Virus record (IMG/VR): IMGVR_UViG_2617270992_000014 | Direction: 5' to 3' (one strand) | Source: a virus | Lineage: Duplodnaviria; Heunggongvirae; Uroviricota; Caudoviricetes | DNA length: 41,104 nt | In this document: positions 1,419-28,472 of the stretch, one piece after another | Numbering within the stretch: the stretch's first letter is position 1 | How the letters are laid out: each line of letters begins with the position of its first letter | Notes under the pieces: model-generated | Database searches by the model: none | What the model was told of the DNA's origin: nothing | What the model saw: the letters and a program-made list of their open reading frames with translations, nothing else | Program-made: the position numbers and the translations under genes

Positions 1419-3833
1419 TTAAAAATCAGCCTGACTCGGGATCAGTTTTTGCCAGATAGCTGAAACTTGTTTTGCCTGGTGACGTGCATCATCGAGTGCA
1501 TTGTGAGGTACACCTTCGAATGGAATAGTCATTCTGACATCAAAGCCAATGGAATTTCCCAGTTCAACAATTGTGCGTACATCGCGATCGTTGCAGTAGC
1601 GCCACGGGCAGGGGATGCCCTGTCGTTCATATGAACGGCGTAAAATTACGTTGTCGAAGTTGGCTCCATTTCCCCAGACTCGAACATAAAATCCACAGGA
1701 GTTTTCATCTATAAATTCCCGCAATTGCAGTAGTGCATCATCTAACGGAATTTCATCGGTCAGAATGGCAGATTGCGCCTCACGTGATTGCTTAAGCCAC
1801 CATTTAATGACGTCACGATCAATGACTCCGCCAGCAGTATCCAGATCGATGGTCTTGCTAAACTCCGGCCCCATCTCTCCGGTCTGCGGATCGAAAAATA
1901 TTGCACCTAATGAGATAATCGGGGCGTCGGGATTTTTTCCCATGGTTTCAAGGTCGATCATCAGGTGGTGCCGCACTCTGCTGGTGGATGTGATAACGTG
2001 ATGACCGTTCACCGCAATTAAGGGATCTGCTGTCTCGCCAGTTTCACTATCGCTGGCGTGGTCCTGAGCGCTGCCAGCATTCTCATTGTGCGGATGTTCA
2101 GCGCCTTCCATTTCCTCCGGATCATTTTCCTTAGCTTCAACCTGATTCTCTTCATCGAATATTTCTTGGTATGTTGCGTCGCCCATCACCGCACCACAGT
2201 CAGGGCAGTTACCCCCGCCAGTCTGGCCGCAGGCATTGCAGGCTATTTCCGGTTCCTGTTGCACTACTGGCTCAGGTTGTTTCACATCCGGGCTGTTTTT
2301 TTCCGTTTCTGGCTGGTTCTGGTACACAGAATCGCGAGTCTGGATCCCCTTCACCCATTTCGGATCGTTCGGGTCGCTAATCCCTGCAACAAATTCACCA
2401 CGTGATACTGCAAGCAGCTGATTGGCGTCAGGCTGGCTGATATTGGCTGCCTGCATAATTTTGTTTACTTCGTCAGCGGTAACTTTTACCTGATTAACCG
2501 GATCTATCTGTGCCTGAGCATCCAGCGATTGCGTGTCCTGGCGATGTTCAGTTGCATTCGGTTCCATTGTTTCAGCCGTTGCCTGTTCATCTGCCATTGC
2601 GTCAGACGGTTGTGATTTTTCCACATTATTTTTTTCTTCTTCTGTTTCGCGTTCAGCAGCCAGTTCGCGGTTAACTTCTTCCAGGATATCTTTTTCCGGC
2701 GTATGCCGGGCAGCTGTGAGAGTTTCCTTGCTGGGGTTCTCGTGATCAGTCTCTGTTAAATAGGCGTTGATATACCCCTGAAGACGTCCCGGGTAATGAT
2801 AAAACTCAGGGTGTGCGCTCCGGATAAGTGCAAAAATAGCGGCGCGGGAATAATCCAGGATACCCGGGATTGCGCGAAGTGCTGCGGACCATTCTTTGAA
2901 CGGACTTTCTTTCTTCCGGACGATTTCTTTTGCGCGACGATAAACGCTGCCCGGAATTTCATAAATATTAAAATCCATCGGAAGTGTGGCCGCTGCAATC
3001 TCCACATCCAGCGTATCGAAGGTGTGTACTAAATTCGGATTGCGATCGGTTTTGTTCCCTCCACCGGCATTAGCACCGGAAGCCGTGCGGGTGATGCGTG
3101 AAACACGATTTCCTTTCATCCACTCTTTTGTCAGCAGACCGCGATCGGTGTAGTCAGCGCCCAGGTATGCTTCGAAAAAAGCAGTCATCAGTCCCAGGTC
3201 TGAATTACCAGGATTAGGGAAAACTTTGTCAGTGTCACGAACCAGTTTGTGGAGATCGCGAATTTCCAGCGGTTCGAGTTGCGCTGCTTTATTTGAGATG
3301 GCCAGCGCGGTAACGGCGGGAAGTTTTTCATCCTGTGCGTTATGTAATGCGCGTAGTTCGCCCCGCGAAACGTGTGTGATCGGTTTTTCGCTGCCGTGCT
3401 GTGCCAGCCATCGAACAGGCAGAATCTGACCTGAAACCGGCAGGAGCATATTCTCCTCAATCTCAGCCATGTCTTCGCCGTTGACGTTGGTATTGTCAGT
3501 GCTGGCTGGTTTATCCTGAACAGAGGGCGAGGGCGCGATAAGCACCATTGTGATACCATCTTCCCCGCCTTTTTCGTATCGGTTGCAGAATTCGGTATCA
3601 AACACGCCTTCCGGAGGAAGGTCATTCACAACGGGTAAATGGACGCGAACAGGTTTTTTAAAATCCTCTTCGTCAAATCCTGCATCGTCCATTGCGACAA
3701 CACCGCGTGATATTGCAACCGATAATTTTTTTGCTGTGCGCCAGTAAAAACCGCCTTTAATCCCAAGACGTTTTCTGACTTTGTCATTTTTGGCTTCGTA
3801 ATACAGTGCAATTTCTTCTTTATCAGTGCTCAT
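1419..3833 (-). CDS. Large multidomain early protein with C-terminal DEDDh (DnaQ-like) 3'-5' exonuclease domain, central Cys4 zinc-ribbon and acidic low-complexity linker
   Basis: 804-aa ORF. C-terminal about 190 aa shows motifs IDLETMG, NGANFDNVIL and HNALDDARH consistent with DEDDh exonuclease motifs I-III. CNACGQTGGGNCPDCG is a zinc-ribbon motif. N-terminal about 550 aa unrecognised. Confidence 0.7.
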   Translation of the reverse strand: MSTDKEEIALYYEAKNDKVRKRLGIKGGFYWRTAKKLSVAISRGVVAMDDAGFDEEDFKKPVRVHLPVVNDLPPEGVFDTEFCNRYEKGGEDGITMVLIAPSPSVQDKPASTDNTNVNGEDMAEIEENMLLPVSGQILPVRWLAQHGSEKPITHVSRGELRALHNAQDEKLPAVTALAISNKAAQLEPLEIRDLHKLVRDTDKVFPNPGNSDLGLMTAFFEAYLGADYTDRGLLTKEWMKGNRVSRITRTASGANAGGGNKTDRNPNLVHTFDTLDVEIAAATLPMDFNIYEIPGSVYRRAKEIVRKKESPFKEWSAALRAIPGILDYSRAAIFALIRSAHPEFYHYPGRLQGYINAYLTETDHENPSKETLTAARHTPEKDILEEVNRELAAERETEEEKNNVEKSQPSDAMADEQATAETMEPNATEHRQDTQSLDAQAQIDPVNQVKVTADEVNKIMQAANISQPDANQLLAVSRGEFVAGISDPNDPKWVKGIQTRDSVYQNQPETEKNSPDVKQPEPVVQQEPEIACNACGQTGGGNCPDCGAVMGDATYQEIFDEENQVEAKENDPEEMEGAEHPHNENAGSAQDHASDSETGETADPLIAVNGHHVITSTSRVRHHLMIDLETMGKNPDAPIISLGAIFFDPQTGEMGPEFSKTIDLDTAGGVIDRDVIKWWLKQSREAQSAILTDEIPLDDALLQLREFIDENSCGFYVRVWGNGANFDNVILRRSYERQGIPCPWRYCNDRDVRTIVELGNSIGFDVRMTIPFEGVPHNALDDARHQAKQVSAIWQKLIPSQADF

Positions 3834-3909
3834 TGATAAACCTCATTACAGATTTAAGGGTGAACAAATCCCTGCCATTGCTGGCATATAAAATGAAACC
3901 AGATATTAT

Positions 3910-4167
3910 TTACGGCGCTGTTTTAAGTCCTGCCGGGATTTCGGTATTATCCATGCGAATAACTTTCTCGACCGGATAACAGTTACCGGGAATTTTCTGT
4001 TCTGCTGCGGCAGCCATACATTCTTTCATTGAACCATATATACCAGTAACCACATCAACAGGTTCGCCAGTATTAAGAAAAACTGTCAGAGTGAGAGCAA
4101 TTGCTGTATTCATTGCCAGCATCCTTTTTGCATCAGACGCAAACGGGCCAGCATTGAAACAATGCAT
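3910..4167 (-). CDS. Hypothetical small early protein (start uncertain, possibly at internal Met)
   Basis: 85-aa ORF in the leftward early operon with a hydrophobic central segment; no recognisable domain. Confidence 0.35.
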   Translation of the reverse strand: MHCFNAGPFASDAKRMLAMNTAIALTLTVFLNTGEPVDVVTGIYGSMKECMAAAAEQKIPGNCYPVEKVIRMDNTEIPAGLKTAP

Positions 4168-4433
4168 ATTTGATTTAATAGCTCCCGTTCGTGTTTTCTC
4201 TTATTAATGGCATCTTCAGTAAATACAGGGTTACTGATTCTGACACCAATTTCAAAACAACCTTCAGACGTATTGACGTTTGGTAATAACGTTTCCATTA
4301 TCGCGTCCTCAACAATGAATTTTGTGATGCGGTGCCTGGTGCCTCCAGGTGACGTTAACCAGTTAACAATTAACGCCGGAATACAGGGACCCGCCTGCAA
4401 GTACCTACCCATAAGTATTGATACGGAGAACAA
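4110..4433 (-). CDS. Hypothetical small early protein (true start probably at the internal METLLPN Met)
   Basis: 107-aa ORF, AT-rich, same orientation as neighbours; overlaps the previous ORF in another frame. Confidence 0.3.
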   Translation of the reverse strand: MFSVSILMGRYLQAGPCIPALIVNWLTSPGGTRHRITKFIVEDAIMETLLPNVNTSEGCFEIGVRISNPVFTEDAINKRKHERELLNQICIVSMLARLRLMQKGCWQ

Positions 4434-4624
4434 ATGGTCTTTTAACTGTTCCGCGTGCGCTTAGCCGCATTCACCGCATCACAAAATTCACTTTAAAAAG
4501 GGCGGACATCAGCCAGCAATGAAAACTGATGCCGCCAAAGGTGCTAATCAACATGAAGTATTACGTAAGATGAATTCAACAAAACGCAACGAGATGGCAT
4601 CACTTATTGAAATAGCTATTGATT

Positions 4625-5668: not shown

Positions 5669-5856
5669 TGAGAAATCCTCTGTTTCCCCTTAACGCCGGG
5701 GTAGCGGAACAAAAACCTGCTGCATAGTTATTAAAGTTGAACCCTGCCGTCATGTTCTTACGCCTCGGGCTGGCTACTTAACCCCTGACCACTGCCTGGT
5801 AACTCGAAGTATTGCCCTGCGTTCTGTGGGGCGGGGTGGGTTGGTATGTTGTTAAG

Positions 5857-5870
5857 GTAACAAGAGTTAC
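5857..5870. promoter_or_regulatory. Candidate left operator (OL-like) palindrome GTAACAAGAGTTAC
   Basis: 14-bp GTAAC-N4-GTTAC inverted repeat, same architecture as the two palindromes in the repressor-cro intergenic region; lies between the repressor terminator and the first leftward gene. Confidence 0.5.
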
Positions 5871-5910
5871 CATTAGAGTCAATACAATGTTGCAAAAGGT
5901 ACACTTGAGG

Positions 5911-5937
5911 GCATAAAAAACCCGCAATGAATGCGGG
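5911..5937 (-). terminator. Intrinsic terminator downstream of the repressor gene
   Basis: Plus-strand AAAAAA-CCCGCA-ATGAA-TGCGGG reads on the minus strand as a 6-bp GC stem followed by a T-run, immediately after the repressor stop. Confidence 0.6.
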
Positions 5938-5944
5938 TTCTGAC

Positions 5945-6619
5945 TCAGTCTAAGTATTGATGTATTTGTGAAACTTTACCTTTAATGGTGTAACCACCAT
6001 TCAGTTCGATGGGTTTGTAAAGCGGATTCAGTGACAACAGATAGATGTTTGGTCCGTCAATCGCAACTTTTTTTAGTGTTACGTTTGGCGTTCCTTCCAA
6101 TTGGATTAAGATTATTTTTCCCACCAGTTCTCTAATGTTACTTGAGCATGGTGTGATCAGCACGGTAGATCCGTCGGGGATGGTTGGGAGGCCGTTAGAG
6201 TTTGTCATCGCATCTCCCTCAACATGCAATAAAAAAGAGTTTTCAGCGGTTTTTGTCATGACATCAACCCAATTCTTAATACCAGGAATCTCGGTTACTG
6301 GACAACTCATATCCCAATAACCAGCCTGTTCCCACGTTAAAACGGGCAACCGGGCGATGTTGTCACTAATGTAAGGGTACTGATTCAGACGCAGATCATC
6401 GGTTTTATCGTGACAGTCCTTTCCATAAAGAATCCATTCAGGAGATTTGGAAAGCAATTTTGACAGTAGATGCAAATTCTCACCGTCAGGTTTTGAAGAG
6501 CCATTTTCCCATTTTGTTACGGATACACGAGATATGCCGATTGCTTTCGCAACCTGCTGTTGGGTTAATCCAACGTCTTTTCGACGATTCCGAATACGTT
6601 CGCTGATAGTGTTTTTCAT
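5945..6619 (-). CDS. CI-like prophage repressor (N-terminal HTH plus C-terminal LexA/S24-type autopeptidase domain); longer alternative starts at 6661 and 6718
   Basis: HTH segment LTQQQVAKAIGISRVSVTKWENG; C-terminal domain resembles the S24 peptidase fold. The start at 6619 places both operator palindromes in the intergenic region and implies a leaderless transcript as in lambda cI; the longest ORF would overlap cro. Confidence 0.8.
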   Translation of the reverse strand: MKNTISERIRNRRKDVGLTQQQVAKAIGISRVSVTKWENGSSKPDGENLHLLSKLLSKSPEWILYGKDCHDKTDDLRLNQYPYISDNIARLPVLTWEQAGYWDMSCPVTEIPGIKNWVDVMTKTAENSFLLHVEGDAMTNSNGLPTIPDGSTVLITPCSSNIRELVGKIILIQLEGTPNVTLKKVAIDGPNIYLLSLNPLYKPIELNGGYTIKGKVSQIHQYLD

Positions 6620-6633
6620 GTAACCAATGTTAC
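6620..6633. promoter_or_regulatory. Candidate right operator palindrome GTAACCAATGTTAC
   Basis: 14-bp GTAAC-N4-GTTAC inverted repeat abutting the proposed repressor start codon. Confidence 0.55.
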
Positions 6634-6667
6634 TACCAAGTGATGTTGCTATGGTTGACATTTCTAT

Positions 6668-6681
6668 GTAACTATTGTTAC
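6668..6681. promoter_or_regulatory. Candidate right operator palindrome GTAACTATTGTTAC
   Basis: Second GTAAC-N4-GTTAC palindrome 48 bp from the first; TTGACA hexamer at 6655-6660 between them; lies about 30 bp upstream of the cro start. Confidence 0.55.
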
Positions 6682-6710
6682 CCTCCCGCTCGAAATAACA
6701 GGAGAGTTTT

Positions 6711-6923
6711 ATGTTCAAAGATGATGTTCTGCGCTATTTCAAAAAAAAGCGACTAGTAGCTGAGGCTCTTGGAATTTCACATGTGGCTGTTGTGCGGTGG
6801 AAAGCAGTTATTCCCAAACTTCGCGCAATGGAACTGGATGAAATTACTAACGGTGAATTGAAATACAACCCAGAACTTTACAAGAAGCAGGATAGCACCT
6901 CGAACGAAGGAAAGAATGATTAA
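6711..6923 (+). CDS. cro: Cro-like small HTH regulator (YdaS-like)
   Basis: 70-aa ORF divergent from the repressor, AGGAG 7 nt upstream; HTH segment RLVAEALGISHVAVVRW. Confidence 0.75.
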   Translation: MFKDDVLRYFKKKRLVAEALGISHVAVVRWKAVIPKLRAMELDEITNGELKYNPELYKKQDSTSNEGKND

Positions 6924-7348
6924 TGAAAATCAAGCATGAACACATCCGCATGGCGATGAATGTCTGGGCGCATCCGGACGGTGAAAAAGTTCCGGCAGCT
7001 GAAATAACCCGGGCTTATTTTGAGCTTGGTATGACGTTCCCGGAGCTATATGACGACAGCCATCCGGAAGCCCTGGCTCGCAATACTCAGAAAATATTCC
7101 GCTGGGTGGAGAAAGACACCCCTGATGCGGTTAAAAAAATTCAGGCGTTGTTACCAGCGATCGAAAAAGCAATGCCACCTCTGCTGGTGGCCCGAATGCG
7201 CAGCCACAGTTCAGCCTATTTTCGGGAGCTGGTGGAGACGCGGGAACGACTGGTGAGAGACGCTGATGATTTTGTCGCAGTGGCGATCGCTGGTTTCAAC
7301 CAGATGAATCGTGGTGGCCCGGCGGGAAATATTGTGGTTGTGCATTGA
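6923..7348 (+). CDS. YdaT-like protein in the CII position (regulator of unknown mechanism)
   Basis: 141-aa ORF directly after cro (ATGA-type junction); size and position match the ydaS-ydaT pair of Rac-type prophages as recalled. Confidence 0.55.
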   Translation: MKIKHEHIRMAMNVWAHPDGEKVPAAEITRAYFELGMTFPELYDDSHPEALARNTQKIFRWVEKDTPDAVKKIQALLPAIEKAMPPLLVARMRSHSSAYFRELVETRERLVRDADDFVAVAIAGFNQMNRGGPAGNIVVVH

Positions 7349-7413
7349 CTGACAATATTCATACCGGATCACTTCCGGCAATTTGTGAGTAAAAAGATTC
7401 GGTATCAAAAGAG

Positions 7414-8460
7414 GTGAGTATGGCTAACGCCTGGCTCAGATTATGGCATGACATGCCAAATGACCCTAAGTGGCGAACAATTGCCAGGGTGTCAGGGCAG
7501 CCAATCGCAACAGTGATGGCTGTGTATATCCACCTTCTGGTGAGCGCGTCACGAAATGTCACGACATGTCACGGCGTGTCACTACGTGGTCACATTGATG
7601 TCACGACGGAAGATTTAGCAAGTGCGCTTGATGTGACGGAAGAAGTAATTGATTCAATTTTACAGGCAATGCAGGGGCGGGTACTTGATGGAGATTTGAT
7701 CAGTGGATGGGAAAAACGCCAGGTACTGAAAGAGGACAATGGCAACGTTTCACAAACCGCGAAATCCCCGGCAGAGCGCAAGAGAGCGCAGCGCGAGAGG
7801 GAAAAATTACGAAAACAGAATGAGGGGGCGCGCGACGAGTCACGCATATGTCACGACATGTCACGACGAGTCACGACAGATAAAGATACAGATAAAGAAT
7901 TAAACCCCACACATAACGCGCGCGTGCGCGAGAGTGCTCCGGTCAGTGAGGCAAATGGCGTGCCGTTGCAAACATCGGAACCTGATTACCTGGAAGGCCT
8001 GAGCGAACCCATCGGGAAATTTCCGATGACCGATGGCTGGCATCCGTCGCCGGATTTTCGACGACGGGCGGCTCTGTGGGGAGTGGCTCTGCCGGAGCCG
8101 GAATTTACACCAGCTGAACTTGCCGCCTTCCGGGACTACTGGGCAGCGGAGGGTAAAGTTTTCACGCAGGTTCAGTGGGAGCAGAAATTCGCCCGTCACG
8201 TAAATCACGTCAGGGCGCAGGCTAAACCAGTCAGCAAGGGGGTAAACCATGCAGCAGCACCAGGTGGCACCGCATCACGGGCAGTTCAGGAAATTCGGGC
8301 AGCACGTGAGCAGTGGGAACGTGAAAACGGATTTATCAGCGACGGAAACGGCCTGGAAGCTGTGGGAACTCATGGGGGAGGTTTATTCGAACCGCTGGAC
8401 CCAGAAGAACGGGGCCGCACCTTCGAAGCTCTGGATTGCACAGATTGGCGCGATGACTGA
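7414..8460 (+). CDS. Replication initiator (O-like) with DnaT-like C-terminal domain; contains the replication origin iterons
   Basis: 348-aa ORF; C-terminal segment [33 protein letters not shown] resembles DnaT-like primosomal domains; two clusters of direct GTCAC(G) repeats inside the coding sequence. Confidence 0.7.
7548..7609 (+). repeat. Iteron cluster 1 (six GTCAC repeats at about 10-11 bp spacing), candidate origin of replication
   Basis: GTCAC at 7548, 7558, 7568, 7578, 7589 and 7600, seen directly in sequence. Confidence 0.7.
7839..7879 (+). repeat. Iteron cluster 2 (four GTCACG repeats at about 10-11 bp spacing) followed by an AT-rich tract
   Basis: GTCAC at 7839, 7850, 7860 and 7870, then GATAAAGATACAGATAAAGAATTAAA; resembles the iterons plus AT-rich layout of ori-lambda. 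Confidence 0.7.
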
Positions 8461-12242: not shown

Positions 12243-12453
12243 AAACGGTTTGCGGGAAAAAGGGAGTTAAGTAAAATTGCTGCGGGTGCTTGAGGCTATC
12301 TGTCTCAGGCATGAACACCAAAAGGCAGATAGAGAAAAGCCCCAGTTAACATTACGCGTCCTGCAAGACGCTTAACATTAATCTGAGGCCCAATCTATGT
12401 CTCACAAATGTAGGTTAGCCTCTTACGCGCCGAAAGGCAAGGAGAAGCAGGCT

Positions 12454-12609
12454 ATGAAGCAGCAAAAGGCGATGTTAATCGTCCTGATCGTCATCTGTTT
12501 AACCGTCATAGCGACGGTACTGGTAACGAGGAAAGACCTCTGCGAGGTACGAATCCGAACCGGCCAGACGGAGGTCGCTGTCTTCACAGCTTACGAACCT
12601 GAGGAGTAA
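12454..12609 (+). CDS. hok: Hok/Gef-family type I toxin (small membrane peptide)
   Basis: MKQQKAMLIVLIVICLTVIATVLVTRKDLCEVRIRTGQTEVAVFTAYEPEE is near-identical in pattern to HokD/RelF-type toxins as recalled; AAGGAG upstream. The track ORF extends upstream to 12397 in the same frame. Confidence 0.8.
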   Translation: MKQQKAMLIVLIVICLTVIATVLVTRKDLCEVRIRTGQTEVAVFTAYEPEE

Positions 12610-12751
12610 GAGACCAGGCGAGGGAGAAACCCCTCGCCACCTCTGATGAGTCAGGCATCCTCAATGCACCCACACTTAACCCGCTTCGGCGTTTTTCCGT
12701 TGATTAACTCTAGTTATCAGAGAACCGAACTTTTACTGATGGGGCAGGGAG

Positions 12752-13144
12752 ATGAAGAAACTTGTTTTAGTTGCAGGTGTAATGATTGCAACAGTAATGT
12801 TGGGAGGGTGTGCAGCAAAGATCGATCCTGCGTTGAAAGCAGAAGCAATGAAACCACTAACATGTAAAGATGAAAAGCAATGTGACTTTTATTGGAAACG
12901 AGCGCAATTCTGGTTGGCTAATAATTCCTCATGGAAAATTCAAACGGCGACAGACACGCTAATTTCCACTTATAACCCTTCACCAAATAGCCCATTCCTC
13001 GCTTATCAAGTGAGTAAAATGCCAAATGAAGATGGATCCGCAAGAATTTTCATCAAGCCTTTTTGCGATAATATGTTTGGCTGTCAACCAAACCCCTATC
13101 AGGCAATAGTTTCCTTTAAAAACTTCGTTAAAACTGGGCAGTAA
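12752..13144 (+). CDS. AT-rich lipoprotein of unknown function
   Basis: 130-aa ORF with a signal peptide and lipobox (VMLGGC); coding region visibly AT-richer than its surroundings; followed by an intrinsic terminator. Confidence 0.65.
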   Translation: MKKLVLVAGVMIATVMLGGCAAKIDPALKAEAMKPLTCKDEKQCDFYWKRAQFWLANNSSWKIQTATDTLISTYNPSPNSPFLAYQVSKMPNEDGSARIFIKPFCDNMFGCQPNPYQAIVSFKNFVKTGQ

Positions 13145-13274
13145 TGTATAGAGGGACGGTAAATTATTAGTGAAAACGCTGTAAACCCTATGGATTGAGT
13201 CAGGATTTAATCCGATAATTATTCTATCGTTCCTTTACAAGTCCGGCATATTACCTTCAGTTTGTTTTAGTATA

Positions 13275-13300
13275 CCCGCTTCGGCGGGTTTTGTTTTTTT
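13275..13300 (+). terminator. Intrinsic terminator after the lipoprotein gene
   Basis: CCCGC-TTCG-GCGGG hairpin followed by TTTTGTTTTTTT. Confidence 0.7.
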
Positions 13301-13371: not shown

Positions 13372-13650
13372 ATGGCGCACGATACCAAATTACACAATTC
13401 TGATGATTCAGCCGTCTTTGCCAGCAGGCACGGGCGGTGCTCTCATGCATTCAAATCTGACTGGTTCCGGCACGACCCATGCACTGAAGAACAGGCCGAA
13501 TGGCTAATTCAGAACTACCGCAGACGTGGTTACGAGTTTCAGAAAGACCTCAGTCTTGATTTCCGACACTGGATAATCTCAGTCAGACTTCCTTACTCCG
13601 AACGCCCACCGCGTCCGTCCCGCACATTCCAGCAACGCATCTGGAGGTAA
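13372..13650 (+). CDS. Hypothetical protein upstream of the DUF968 gene (start uncertain)
   Basis: ORF whose stop sits 2 nt before the DUF968 start. The track's start at 13291 (TTG) lies inside the terminator T-run; the first ATG is at 13372. Confidence 0.4.
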   Translation: MAHDTKLHNSDDSAVFASRHGRCSHAFKSDWFRHDPCTEEQAEWLIQNYRRRGYEFQKDLSLDFRHWIISVRLPYSERPPRPSRTFQQRIWR

Positions 13651-13651
13651 C

Positions 13652-14710
13652 GTGCGGGTATTAGTGACTCCTGAAATTGCTCACCGTCTGGGGATTGTAC
13701 TTTTCAGGCCCGGTCCTGATGCGATGCCTTTGTTTATGCAGGGGCGTGTGCTGGTGGAGCCGGAACCCAAAAGCATGCGAGGTTTGCCATCCGGAGTCGT
13801 TCCTGCCGTTCGCCAGCCGCTGGCGGAGGATAAATCATTACTGCCATTTTTCAGCGATGAGCGGGTAATTCGTGCTGCCGGTGGCACTGGTGCACTGTCT
13901 GACTGGCTCCTGCGTCATGTTAAATCCTGCCAGTGGCCTCATAGTGACTACCATCACAGTGAAATCGTCATACATCGTTATGGTACCGGAGCGATGGTGT
14001 TGTGCTGGCACTGCGACAACCAACTGCGTGACCAGACATCCGAATCACTCGAGCAACTTGCTCATCAAAATCTGTCTGCATGGATGATTGACGTCATACG
14101 CAATGCAATGAATGGTACGCAAGAGCGGGAATTATCGCTGGCTGAGTTATCCTGGTGGGCGGTCTGCAATCAGGTGGCGGGCGCGCTACCGGAGGCAGTA
14201 TTACGTCGTTCGTTGGGATTACGTACGGAAAAAATCCGCTCTGTGTACCGTGAGAGCGACATCGTACCGGGAGAACAGACAGCCACCAGCATACTGAAGC
14301 AGCGCACAAAAAATATTGTGCTACCGCCTCACGCCCACCAGCAACAGAACTCACCACAGGAAAAGACGGTGGTCAGCATTGTCGTTGATCCGGAGTCTCC
14401 GACTCAGTATCTCCAGCGTCAGAAACCACAGCGGGAAGAGATGCCCGTATACACGCGCTGGGTAAAAACGCAGAAATGCATGACTTGTGGCAATCAGGCA
14501 GATGATCCGCATCACATCATTGGCTATGGACTGGGAGGGATGGGAACAAAGACTGACGATTTGTTTGTTATTCCGCTGTGCCGTAAATGTCATAACGAAC
14601 TGCACGCCGGGGTAAAAGATTTTGAAGAAAAACACGGCAGCCAGCTGTTGTTGCTGATTCGTTTTTTAATGCACGCGAGAAATTCGGGTGTCCTGAAGTG
14701 GAAAGCATGA
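13652..14710 (+). CDS. DUF968-family protein (YdfU-like) with C-terminal HNH-like Cys/His motif
   Basis: 352-aa ORF; C-terminal CMTCGNQADDPHHIIGYGLGGMGTKTDDLFVIPLCRKCHNELH; sits immediately upstream of rusA as DUF968 genes do in lambdoid prophages (from memory). Confidence 0.7.
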   Translation: MRVLVTPEIAHRLGIVLFRPGPDAMPLFMQGRVLVEPEPKSMRGLPSGVVPAVRQPLAEDKSLLPFFSDERVIRAAGGTGALSDWLLRHVKSCQWPHSDYHHSEIVIHRYGTGAMVLCWHCDNQLRDQTSESLEQLAHQNLSAWMIDVIRNAMNGTQERELSLAELSWWAVCNQVAGALPEAVLRRSLGLRTEKIRSVYRESDIVPGEQTATSILKQRTKNIVLPPHAHQQQNSPQEKTVVSIVVDPESPTQYLQRQKPQREEMPVYTRWVKTQKCMTCGNQADDPHHIIGYGLGGMGTKTDDLFVIPLCRKCHNELHAGVKDFEEKHGSQLLLLIRFLMHARNSGVLKWKA

Positions 14711-15897: not shown

Positions 15898-16134
15898 ATG
15901 GAAGAAAAGCAGCCTTATATTTTCAATCCGGGTATGTCCATGACAGAACTGCAGACATGGCTGGAAAGGCAATCGATGGCAGTATCTTGTTTTAATAAAC
16001 TGGTTGAGGAAAAAGCCGCTATCGAGAAGCGGCTTGAGGAGATTAATCGATATCTTGATTTTTACGCATCGCGAATTTCTGAAGAAAAGTTGAGTTTTGT
16101 TCAGGAGCCCAGTCCTGATCTGACCAGTGAGTAG
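15898..16134 (+). CDS. Hypothetical coiled-coil-like small protein
   Basis: 78-aa ORF with GGAGGA 6 nt upstream of the ATG; 3' end overlaps a convergent minus-strand ORF. Confidence 0.4.
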   Translation: MEEKQPYIFNPGMSMTELQTWLERQSMAVSCFNKLVEEKAAIEKRLEEINRYLDFYASRISEEKLSFVQEPSPDLTSE

Positions 16135-16513
16135 TATCAGTATGTGTGACAGGCAAATTAAGCCCAGTAAGAAACTCGGCAGCTTCTTCGCACATATTAT
16201 CTGGCGTCAGGTACTCTGCAATAACAAAAAGACTGTCACGCAGGGAGAGTTTGCGAATATCTTCCAGCTTCCATTTTGTTATCCTGAAAATCATATGGTG
16301 TAGCGCCTTTCTGTTATCCAGGTGGTAGTGAAGGTGCGCATTTTTTCTTCGGTATTCTTCCAGTACGCATTCCAGCGTAAAAATCTGTCCGATTCGATAC
16401 CACGCTTCACGGTACTGCTGAATGGTCATGTCGAGTAAGACATGCTCTGGAATGTTATTGTTCTGGCATACCTTGAGCTTTATTGCTTGTAGTAAATTGG
16501 AGTAGTCACTCAT
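16043..16513 (-). CDS. Hypothetical protein encoded opposite to the late operon
   Basis: 156-aa ORF, AGAGG 5 nt upstream of the ATG on the minus strand; AT-rich; no recognisable domain. Confidence 0.5.
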   Translation of the reverse strand: MSDYSNLLQAIKLKVCQNNNIPEHVLLDMTIQQYREAWYRIGQIFTLECVLEEYRRKNAHLHYHLDNRKALHHMIFRITKWKLEDIRKLSLRDSLFVIAEYLTPDNMCEEAAEFLTGLNLPVTHTDTTHWSDQDWAPEQNSTFLQKFAMRKNQDID

Positions 16514-28442: not shown

Positions 28443-28451
28443 GTCAACATA

Positions 28452-28472
28452 ACCGCTTCGGCGGTTTTTTTT
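28452..28472 (+). terminator. Hairpin with T-run between T and the tape measure gene
   Basis: ACCGC-TTCG-GCGGT with a UUCG-type tetraloop followed by eight T residues. Confidence 0.45.

Follow-up and report, generated by a model that had tools for sequence, protein, structure and literature searches.

We analyzed a lipoprotein gene that lies next to the hok/sok locus of IMG/VR virus record IMGVR_UViG_2617270992_000014, a stretch of 41,104 nucleotides that is called the window throughout. The window is a lambdoid Escherichia coli prophage and is identical to IMG/VR contig UViG_2617270973_000009. Its genes are arranged in the order integrase, RecE-type exonuclease, cI-like repressor, replication genes, nin-type region, Q, and lysis genes, followed by an HK97-type head, a lambda-type tail, J, Lom, and a side tail fibre. 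Within the nin-type region, hok/sok is followed by the open reading frame (ORF) of the lipoprotein, a 92-residue ORF, a DUF968/HNH gene, rusA, and Q. The lipoprotein gene is carried by a 595-bp cassette that is inserted into the terminator hairpin of hok/sok. The positions of all features of the locus are listed in Table 1.

Table 1. Features of the lipoprotein cassette and of the resident hok/sok locus, in coordinates of the window
Feature	Position	Strand	Basis or remark
Inserted cassette, 595 bp; boundaries ambiguous within the 13-bp repeat	12692..13286	+	Absent from Evi and vB_EcoS-640R1
Lipoprotein gene, 130 aa	12752..13144	+	phrog_16082 (unknown function), 1.8e-83
Signal peptide, aa 1-19	12752-12808	+	Lipobox and hydrophobic stretch
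Lipid-modified Cys20 (predicted)	12809-12811	+	Lipobox L-G-G-C
Leader, 60 nt, with G-rich Shine-Dalgarno-like runs GGGG (12741-44) and GGGAG (12747-51)	12692..12751	+	Alignment
AT-rich 3' untranslated stretch of the cassette, 34.9% GC	13145..13273	+	Composition
Left copy of the 13-bp direct repeat ACCCGCTTCGGCG with U-run (TTTTT)	12679..12697	+	Repeat spacing 595
Intact intrinsic terminator, right repeat copy; original hok/sok terminator	13274..13299	+	Same hairpin in empty-site phages
5' part of hok mRNA / sok antisense region, hokW-type type I toxin-antitoxin	12284..12459	+	Rfam RF01794 'sok', 118.8 bits, E 6e-28, full model
mok/hok frame, 70 aa; Hok toxin is the C-terminal ~51 aa	12397..12609	+	Pfam HOK_GEF, 2.5e-22
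GCACCC, fully complementary to GGGUGC at the 5' end of the hok mRNA (12284-12289)	12666..12671	+	Read from sequence
Small ORF, 92 aa, phrog_1212	13372-13650	+	Resident, downstream context
DUF968/HNH (YdfU-like) gene	13652-14710	+	Resident, downstream context; then rusA and Q

The lipoprotein gene and its product

Lipoprotein precursors were recognized by a positively charged n-region, a hydrophobic h-region, a lipobox of the form [LVI..][ASTG..][GAS]C, and a cysteine at about residue 15-35. The precursor encoded in the window, whose N-terminus reads MKKLVLVAGVMIATVMLGGC followed by AAK, has the arrangement MKK-LVLVAGVMIATVM-LGG-C20 of a signal peptidase II (SPase II) substrate, with K2 and K3 in the n-region, a hydrophobic h-region, and the lipobox MLGG/C20. 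A previous sequence-only reading of the locus had described a 130-residue lipoprotein with a signal peptide, a lipobox, and several cysteines, and all of these elements were recovered. It had also pointed to the residue after the lipobox cysteine as an indicator of localization. This residue (+2) is Ala, not Asp, which predicts sorting to the outer membrane by the Lol system. The mature part of about 110 residues contains four cysteines (C38, C44, C105, and C111) that are invariant, or nearly so, throughout the family. They are predicted to form two disulfides and thus suggest a periplasmic, oxidized, compact alpha+beta domain spanning the mature part.

The cassette differs clearly in composition from its surroundings. 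Its GC content is 39.5%, compared with 51.3% for the window and 51.2% and 53.7% for the two flanks; equally low values occur in 0.13% of all 595-bp intervals. The coding sequence has 39.4% GC, with 35% at third codon positions. The suspicion that the segment is AT-richer than its neighbours was therefore borne out by the calculation, at third codon positions as well.

Comparison between homologues gave dN values of 0.06-0.34, with dS saturated or above 1.2 and a dN/dS ratio (omega) of about 0.04-0.12 where it could be computed. Intact reading frames were present in 55 of the 56 E. coli-type copies in IMG/VR, and approximately 50 positions are invariant across genera. Because dN is low against saturated synonymous sites and nearly all copies are intact, we conclude that the reading frame is real and under strong purifying selection. 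A decaying passenger devoid of current function would be in line with the lack of a known function and of a detectable promoter. These selection data effectively refute that explanation, which we consider highly improbable.

The cassette is inserted into the hok/sok terminator

The target of the insertion is a hok/sok locus with an intact Hok/Gef toxin ORF and the sok/hok-leader RNA structure, for which the gathering score of RF01794 is 59. In matching records, the mok/hok ORF is annotated as hokD or host killer protein. The GCACCC motif is intact and located just upstream of the insertion junction. By analogy, it is a candidate fold-back (fbi-like) element of the hok mRNA. Such a fold-back element belongs to the hok/sok model derived from plasmid R1.

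An alignment that also included the rem-carrying phage mEp460 showed that phages Evi and vB_EcoS-640R1 share the hok locus and the genes downstream of it with the window but lack exactly these 595 bp. The hok region at the empty site reads ...GCACCCGCACGTAACCCGCTTCGGCGGGTTTTGTTTTTTCCTGGCATTC..., and the flanks are joined through one intact terminator hairpin. In the window, the two repeat copies differ in their integrity. The left copy, ACCCGCTTCGGCG, has lost the 3' half of the stem and forms a degenerate hairpin with a stem of 3 bp. The right hairpin has a GC-rich 6-bp stem with a UUCG loop (13274-13289, ACCCGC-TTCG-GCGGGT), followed by the T-run TTTGTTTTTT. The calculated free energies are -3.1 kcal/mol for the left copy, -10.9 kcal/mol for the right copy, and -13.9 kcal/mol for the empty site. 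The left hairpin is likewise degenerate in all E. coli-type IMG/VR copies with an uninterrupted left junction, and it is probably a leaky terminator. The right hairpin and the sequence downstream of it differ from the empty-site phages at two bases (one at the T-run/CC, the other after TACAAT). We conclude that the cassette sits inside the hok/sok terminator hairpin and that the terminator is a pre-existing, resident one. The strong hairpin that had been taken for the lipoprotein gene's own terminator is indeed present, but its assignment has to be revised, since phages without the cassette have the same hairpin.

The 60-nt leader of the cassette is conserved with the leaders of Enterobacter and Pantoea prophage homologues. 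In a Pantoea prophage and in E. hormaechei prophages, the homologue is preceded by a conserved leader of about 55 nt and, before it, by a hairpin. These 5' hairpins, AACCCGCTTCGGCGGGTTTTT and AGCCCGCTTCGGTGGGTTTT, are near-identical to the hok terminator in the alignment, and in the Pantoea and Enterobacter contexts the leader and the 5' hairpin ACCCGCTTCGGCGGGTTTT move along with the gene. Because the 5' hairpin of the cassette matches the hok terminator, recombination via short homology explains the left junction, though not the right one; the left junction probably arose at the shared terminator hairpin. Homologues elsewhere have downstream hairpins of their own.

The same hairpin is used by other cargo. 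Phage mEp460, the PPompW group, and, by annotation, Qin-type prophages carry an unrelated rem cassette directly after it. Like the lipoprotein cassette, rem in Qin, mEp460, and PPompW prophages occupies the hot spot between the hok terminator and the DUF968 gene. It differs in content, a small cytoplasmic protein, and in its insertion point, which directly follows the hairpin and does not interrupt it. As the site is empty in Evi and 640R1, occupied by rem in mEp460, PPompW, and Qin-type prophages, and occupied by the lipoprotein gene in the window, we regard the hok hairpin as a recurrent cargo site. A near-copy of the hairpin with two mismatches (AACCGCTTCGGCGGTTTTT) is located at 28451-28469, just before the tape-measure gene. 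UUCG hairpins of this type recur at module junctions and could act as recombination microhomology.

Taken together, the cassette is a true moron, a 595-bp mobile element encoding a Sec/SPase II lipoprotein precursor. It is absent from otherwise collinear relatives (Evi and 640R1, with rem in its place in mEp460 and PPompW), its nucleotide composition is distinct, and its homologues reside at unrelated phage and plasmid positions. In these respects the earlier designation as a moron was justified, whereas an upstream promoter, one half of the classical moron signature, was not found.

Proposed expression from the hok promoter

No sigma-70 consensus promoter was detected upstream of the gene in the window or of two homologues; the scan was strict and also missed the promoters of hok and sok. 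Because the left hairpin is crippled and no promoter is visible in the leader, we propose read-through from the hok promoter, and transcription as an extension of the hok mRNA is the most likely arrangement. In the lysogen, the constitutive hok mRNA would extend at its 3' end into the gene. After induction, the gene would be transcribed by N-antiterminated early transcription. Lipoprotein transcription would end at the intact hok terminator. Against this model, a weak promoter in the leader may drive the gene instead of hok read-through. In a few genomes, IS elements (IS1203 in E. coli TW10573) or other insertions split hok from the lipoprotein gene or cut its 5' end.

The 3' untranslated stretch contains no credible Rfam family, the best match being rsmX with 20 bits and an E value of 0.51. 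A link of this stretch to the prophage small RNA svsR (PMC12803456) was ruled out, as svsR sits at the cI gene.

Distribution in E. coli

The cassette was found in 255 of 5426 complete E. coli genomes, always on the chromosome, always at this site, and with 95-98.4% identity. Right junction and DUF968 neighbour are alike in all 56 E. coli-type IMG/VR loci, and wherever the left flank is covered, hok is adjacent, apart from interruptions of the IS type. In most E. coli copies, the 3' untranslated stretch is longer by about 69 bases. The short form is less common and is present in the window, in 606R7, and in a small number of other copies. The exact protein cluster comprises 1137 members, named only 'hypothetical protein' or 'Prophage protein'. 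A tblastn search of 50,697 phage genomes, with the window protein or a distant family member as the query, matched only two induced E. coli prophages. The 90%-identity cluster of the lipoprotein also includes many 70-residue Hok/Mok proteins, presumably a clustering artefact that arose from a gene call bridging or fusing hok and the lipoprotein gene at their junction.

The carrier isolates originate from humans, poultry, pigs, and cattle, and include avian pathogenic (APEC), enterotoxigenic (ETEC), and sequence type 131 (ST131) strains. This range would suit a host-fitness or virulence factor of the lysogen that acts in serum or complement resistance, adhesion, or stress tolerance and has no effect on phages. 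An outer-membrane-type prophage lipoprotein encoded in the nin region, where conversion genes are commonly located, fits as well, and so do two of the fold matches described below, the Francisella lipoprotein Flpp3 and the N-terminal domain of BamC. The precedent is Bor/Iss of lambda, a lipoprotein moron of lambdoid prophages that is expressed in lysogens and confers serum resistance. Bor differs from the window lipoprotein in genome position and size, and the Pfam scan of the protein returned neither Lambda_Bor nor any other family at E values up to 0.1. We consider a pure host-fitness role unlikely.

Homologues in other phages and on plasmids

Close homologues with 66-82% identity were found in Enterobacter, Pantoea, Phytobacter, and metagenomes. 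They occupy about six other positions, mostly among the tail-tip genes H-M-L-K-I-J. The homologue lies between the tape-measure gene H and M in E. hormaechei (three contigs), between M and L in a metagenome contig, between I and J in P. ananatis, after an Arc/Arc/Bro-N-antirepressor island and before I and J in Pantoea sp., and beside a gpM fragment in a Phytobacter prophage remnant. Two further homologues are located in the tail module of a phiJL001/GTA-like (gene transfer agent-like) siphovirus (31% identity) and in a P22-like early region (42% identity). Every context examined in Enterobacter, Pantoea, Phytobacter, and the metagenome set is a phage, and no conserved partner gene adjoins the homologues in these contexts. 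The island of the Pantoea sp. prophage (5861-7914, between K and I) resembles P22 immI and consists of two Arc-family genes and a Bro-N/P22_AR_C antirepressor gene; the lipoprotein gene is located directly behind its terminator.

The family also occurs on plasmids. WP_032201349 (41% identity, 126 residues, lipobox LTGC, 'Lipoprotein' in UniRef) is the only non-backbone gene of ColRNAI (ColE1-type) plasmids of 2.5-4 kb in Citrobacter, Salmonella, and Enterobacter, for example NZ_CP141253.1, NZ_CP091549.1, and NZ_CP056713.1. It was found on at least 1000 contigs, none larger than 8.6 kb. The plasmid gene comes with an AT-rich upstream region of its own and is followed by a hairpin. On Acinetobacter baumannii plasmids of about 110 kb (126 records), the domain follows a plain signal peptide and is joined to a LysM peptidoglycan-binding module (5776-6345 of the plasmid locus).

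The gene is part of the late tail operon in the majority of the other phages and would there be expressed late under Q-type antitermination; in the window, it belongs to the early-right operon. The position in the tail operon would agree with a function in the phage's own lytic cycle, in which receptors on lysing cells or debris are inactivated so that progeny are not lost; such receptor inactivation is the second role proposed for Llp of phage T5. The window gene, however, is dispensable in that close relatives lack it and shows no coupling to the receptor-binding region of J, and its plasmid relatives are carried alone by replicons without a lytic cycle. A lytic-cycle function is thus improbable.

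The wider family and its predicted fold

A profile search of 1.84 billion representative proteins yielded 1139 clusters at E values of 1e-3 or below, 531 of them at 1e-10 or below. Little was gained from a word-indexed search of proteins with a profile of 49 sequences. Most members are lipoproteins of about 125-135 residues. A lipobox-like motif was present in 131 of the 163 family proteins retrieved, with variants such as LSGC, LVGC, LTAC, and MVGC at the aligned position, and the +2 residue is Ala in 69 of 82 members and never Asp. The conserved core comprises C-x5-C, W, A, W, S, Q, I-x-T, G, I, and C-x-N-x-F-G-C. Some members from Betaproteobacteria have a C-terminal PDZ domain, and one is a tandem duplication.

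A profile search of genome contigs with a broad profile gave five loci in Burkholderiales, too few for neighbourhood statistics, and the same scan with the close-family profile gave no match. Two of the five are found in ordinary chromosomal surroundings, one with uvrB, an aminotransferase gene, an AsmA-like gene, map, and glnD as neighbours, the other with transporter and oxidase genes. Because these distant relatives reside in such neighbourhoods, the ancestral role appears to be cellular. To judge from these contexts, the domain is of cellular origin and has repeatedly been acquired by mobile elements.

Protein scans and literature searches by accession and topic revealed no Pfam or NCBIfam model, solved structure, or literature description of the family. 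PHROG matches of the window protein were confined to two families of unknown function, phrog_16082 and phrog_4186 (1.6e-8), and a marginal match to Cor. AlphaFold2, run with 12 sequences, predicted a chain of helix, strand, long helix, four strands, and C-terminal helix, with a predicted local distance difference test (pLDDT) score of 78, values of mostly 85-93 in the mature domain, and a predicted template modelling (pTM) score of 0.70. Foldseek searches of PDB and BFVD gave nothing better than an E value of 0.03, and the sequence profile matched no PDB chain below an E value of 0.4. The best fold matches include Flpp3 of Francisella (DUF3568), the N-terminal domain of BamC, KA1, and TBP-like helix-grip domains. 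With 6-16% identity and Foldseek E values of 0.03 or worse, they represent a general-fold resemblance only, and the absence of a Pfam match places the protein outside the DUF3568/Flpp3-like sequence family. The predicted structure gives a fold class, not a function. The statement of the sequence-only reading that the protein resembles no recognized lipoprotein was upheld by PHROG, Pfam, and profile comparisons with Cor, Llp, Lpp021, and Bor, and the homology and structure searches it had called for uncovered no housekeeping phage function.

The domain is tethered near the cell wall or the outer membrane in three ways, by a lipid anchor, by a lipid anchor combined with a PDZ domain, or by LysM. 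The main rival to the function that we favour below builds on this feature. The protein would be a periplasmic inhibitor or immunity protein that protects the carrier cell from a wall- or envelope-attacking enzyme and would not mask a receptor. Lysozyme-type or phage tail-associated peptidoglycan hydrolases and type VI or bacteriocin effectors have to be considered as targets. The conserved loop C-(D/N)-N-x-F-G-C, predicted to be closed by a disulfide, the chromosomal relatives in Burkholderiales, the conservation independent of the J receptor-binding region, and the role as sole cargo of small ColE1-type plasmids, a niche typical of bacteriocin and immunity genes, are all compatible with an inhibitor. 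On the other hand, neither homology nor fold links the protein to Ivy, MliC/PliC, PliG, PliI, or known immunity families, none of the copies examined has a cognate toxin gene beside it, and the idea derives from the domain fusions alone. We regard an inhibitor, and the targets listed, as rather unlikely.

Comparison with known phage lipoproteins and exclusion factors

According to a study published in 2025, mEpimmI coliphages encode small lipoproteins within their structural gene clusters, and expression of these proteins by themselves excludes phages that depend on OmpA or LamB (PMC11893012). Cor and Lpp by themselves exclude phages that use FhuA, OmpA, or LamB (PMC11893012). Like the window protein, Cor (phi80, T1, N15, HK022, and mEp167) and Lpp021/Lpp010 are small accessory lipoproteins of phages with an SPase II signal, and the homologues of the window gene likewise lie in or next to tail-tip or host-range genes. 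In contrast to Cor and Lpp, the window protein has a mature part of twice the length (about 110 versus about 50-60 residues) with a predicted alpha+beta fold of its own and two cysteine pairs. It also shows no link to a particular J receptor-binding region, and exclusion is an inferred property here.

Llp of phage T5 is an outer-membrane lipoprotein with a disulfide that acts alone and blocks FhuA. The window protein resembles it as a phage-encoded lipoprotein of the outer-membrane type with, by prediction, disulfide bonds. Its gene, unlike that of Llp, is far from the receptor-binding gene, and no PHROG, Pfam, or Foldseek-PDB match connects the two proteins. The exclusion moron gp15 of HK97 is an inner-membrane protein, not a lipoprotein. 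It shares no homology with the window lipoprotein, and the likeness is one of layout, a single-gene insertion in the tail operon, as seen for the homologues of the window gene, which are flanked by hairpins. According to these comparisons, the window protein falls outside the Cor, Llp, mEpimmI Lpp, and Bor families, and its mode of action may be like theirs.

Proposed function

Tail-tip gene clusters are the typical place of exclusion morons. Because the homologues reside in such clusters, form the sole cargo of tiny plasmids, and do not depend on a neighbouring gene, we propose a protective function in the envelope. The sequence-only reading had pointed to superinfection exclusion or receptor masking of the Cor or Llp kind, and an exclusion function is plausible. 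Our tentative preference, held with somewhat less than even confidence, is an exclusion or envelope-protection factor that acts on a conserved envelope target or on a periplasm-crossing step. The lipoprotein would act alone in the envelope and thereby protect the cell harbouring the element. It would block entry by binding either to a conserved component of the envelope or to an arriving machine that crosses the periplasm, for example the tip or tape measure of a phage tail, a bacteriocin, or a wall hydrolase. In this manner it would work as Cor, Llp, or mEpimmI Lpp do, while being unrelated to them in sequence.

Several observations weigh against this proposal. The protein has no homology to any characterized exclusion protein. 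The match to Cor (phrog_1119) has an E value of 0.0096 and covers residues 1-44, that is, the signal peptide only, and no stretch passes alone. An hhalign comparison of Lpp of mEp021 (gp81, 72 residues) with the family profile aligned 20 columns, all in the signal peptide, with a probability of 41%. A PADLOC scan of the protein gave 0 families and hence no known anti-phage defence system. The Burkholderiales relatives suggest that the ancestral role is cellular rather than antiviral. Finally, while the lipoproteins are 66-82% identical across genera, the J proteins of the carriers share no common C-terminal receptor-binding region.

The last point bears on a receptor mask tailored to the J protein of the carrier itself. 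Of the 80 IMG/VR contigs that best match the J end of the window, most were absent from the 60 contigs in which the lipoprotein was found, the coverage of the nin region in these contigs being unchecked. The E. coli carriers have unrelated tape measures. Three of them share a J end with 83-96% identity, which is uninformative because this J type is very common (at least 598 IMG/VR matches). Since the lipoproteins are conserved while the J ends differ, and since contigs with the window's J end mostly fall outside the carrier set, a J-matched mask appears unlikely. Coupling of the lipoprotein to the receptor-binding end of J was rejected on the grounds that carriers of different genera have no such end in common.

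A more far-reaching version of the exclusion proposal, which we regard as possible but doubtful, is that the lipoproteins constitute a new, widespread single-gene 'envelope guard' family that is distributed over prophages, ColE1-type plasmids, and large plasmids. On this view, a periplasmic domain of cellular origin would have given rise to the family, whose members would act at the periplasmic face to keep out phages, or else bacteriocins or wall hydrolases, whatever the receptor specificity of the carrier phage. In E. coli, the gene would ride the constitutive hok toxin mRNA after disabling its terminator.

Other accessory genes of the prophage

The prophage has further regions of low GC content. 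A second pocket (~41%) between Q and the lysis genes contains a 156-residue ORF on the minus strand (16043-16513, phrog_5286, unknown function), which may be another moron. A TerB-like protein of a 'tellurite resistance' family (phrog_632) is encoded at 16790-17215, just upstream of the lysis cassette. Stretches with 39-42% GC in the early-left region and around the repressor gene (3577-4600 and 5840-6400) hold small ORFs of unknown function (phrog_6937 and phrog_24763). No tRNA gene is present in the window, in contrast to the related phage 606R7, in which tRNA genes follow Q. Directly 3' of J, the gene at 37566-38165 encodes the outer-membrane protein Lom (phrog_108, 1e-106), a second envelope-directed accessory gene of this prophage.

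Significance

As a lipoprotein moron, the element is of an ordinary kind, yet it belongs to an uncharacterized and widely mobile family. About one in 20 complete E. coli genomes carries the gene, and a relative is common on small enterobacterial plasmids. Despite this wide distribution the family is nameless: we found no Pfam or NCBIfam model, structure, or paper devoted to it. Its mobility, its role as sole plasmid cargo, and the purifying selection mark the gene as one that pays its way alone in the envelope. Because it is mobile, travels as the only cargo of plasmids, and is strongly selected, it is a candidate for a new mechanism of exclusion or protection. The insertion in the window also illustrates how morons move and become expressed, namely by recombination at a shared terminator hairpin, where the disabled upstream terminator would let the resident hok transcript drive the newcomer gene.

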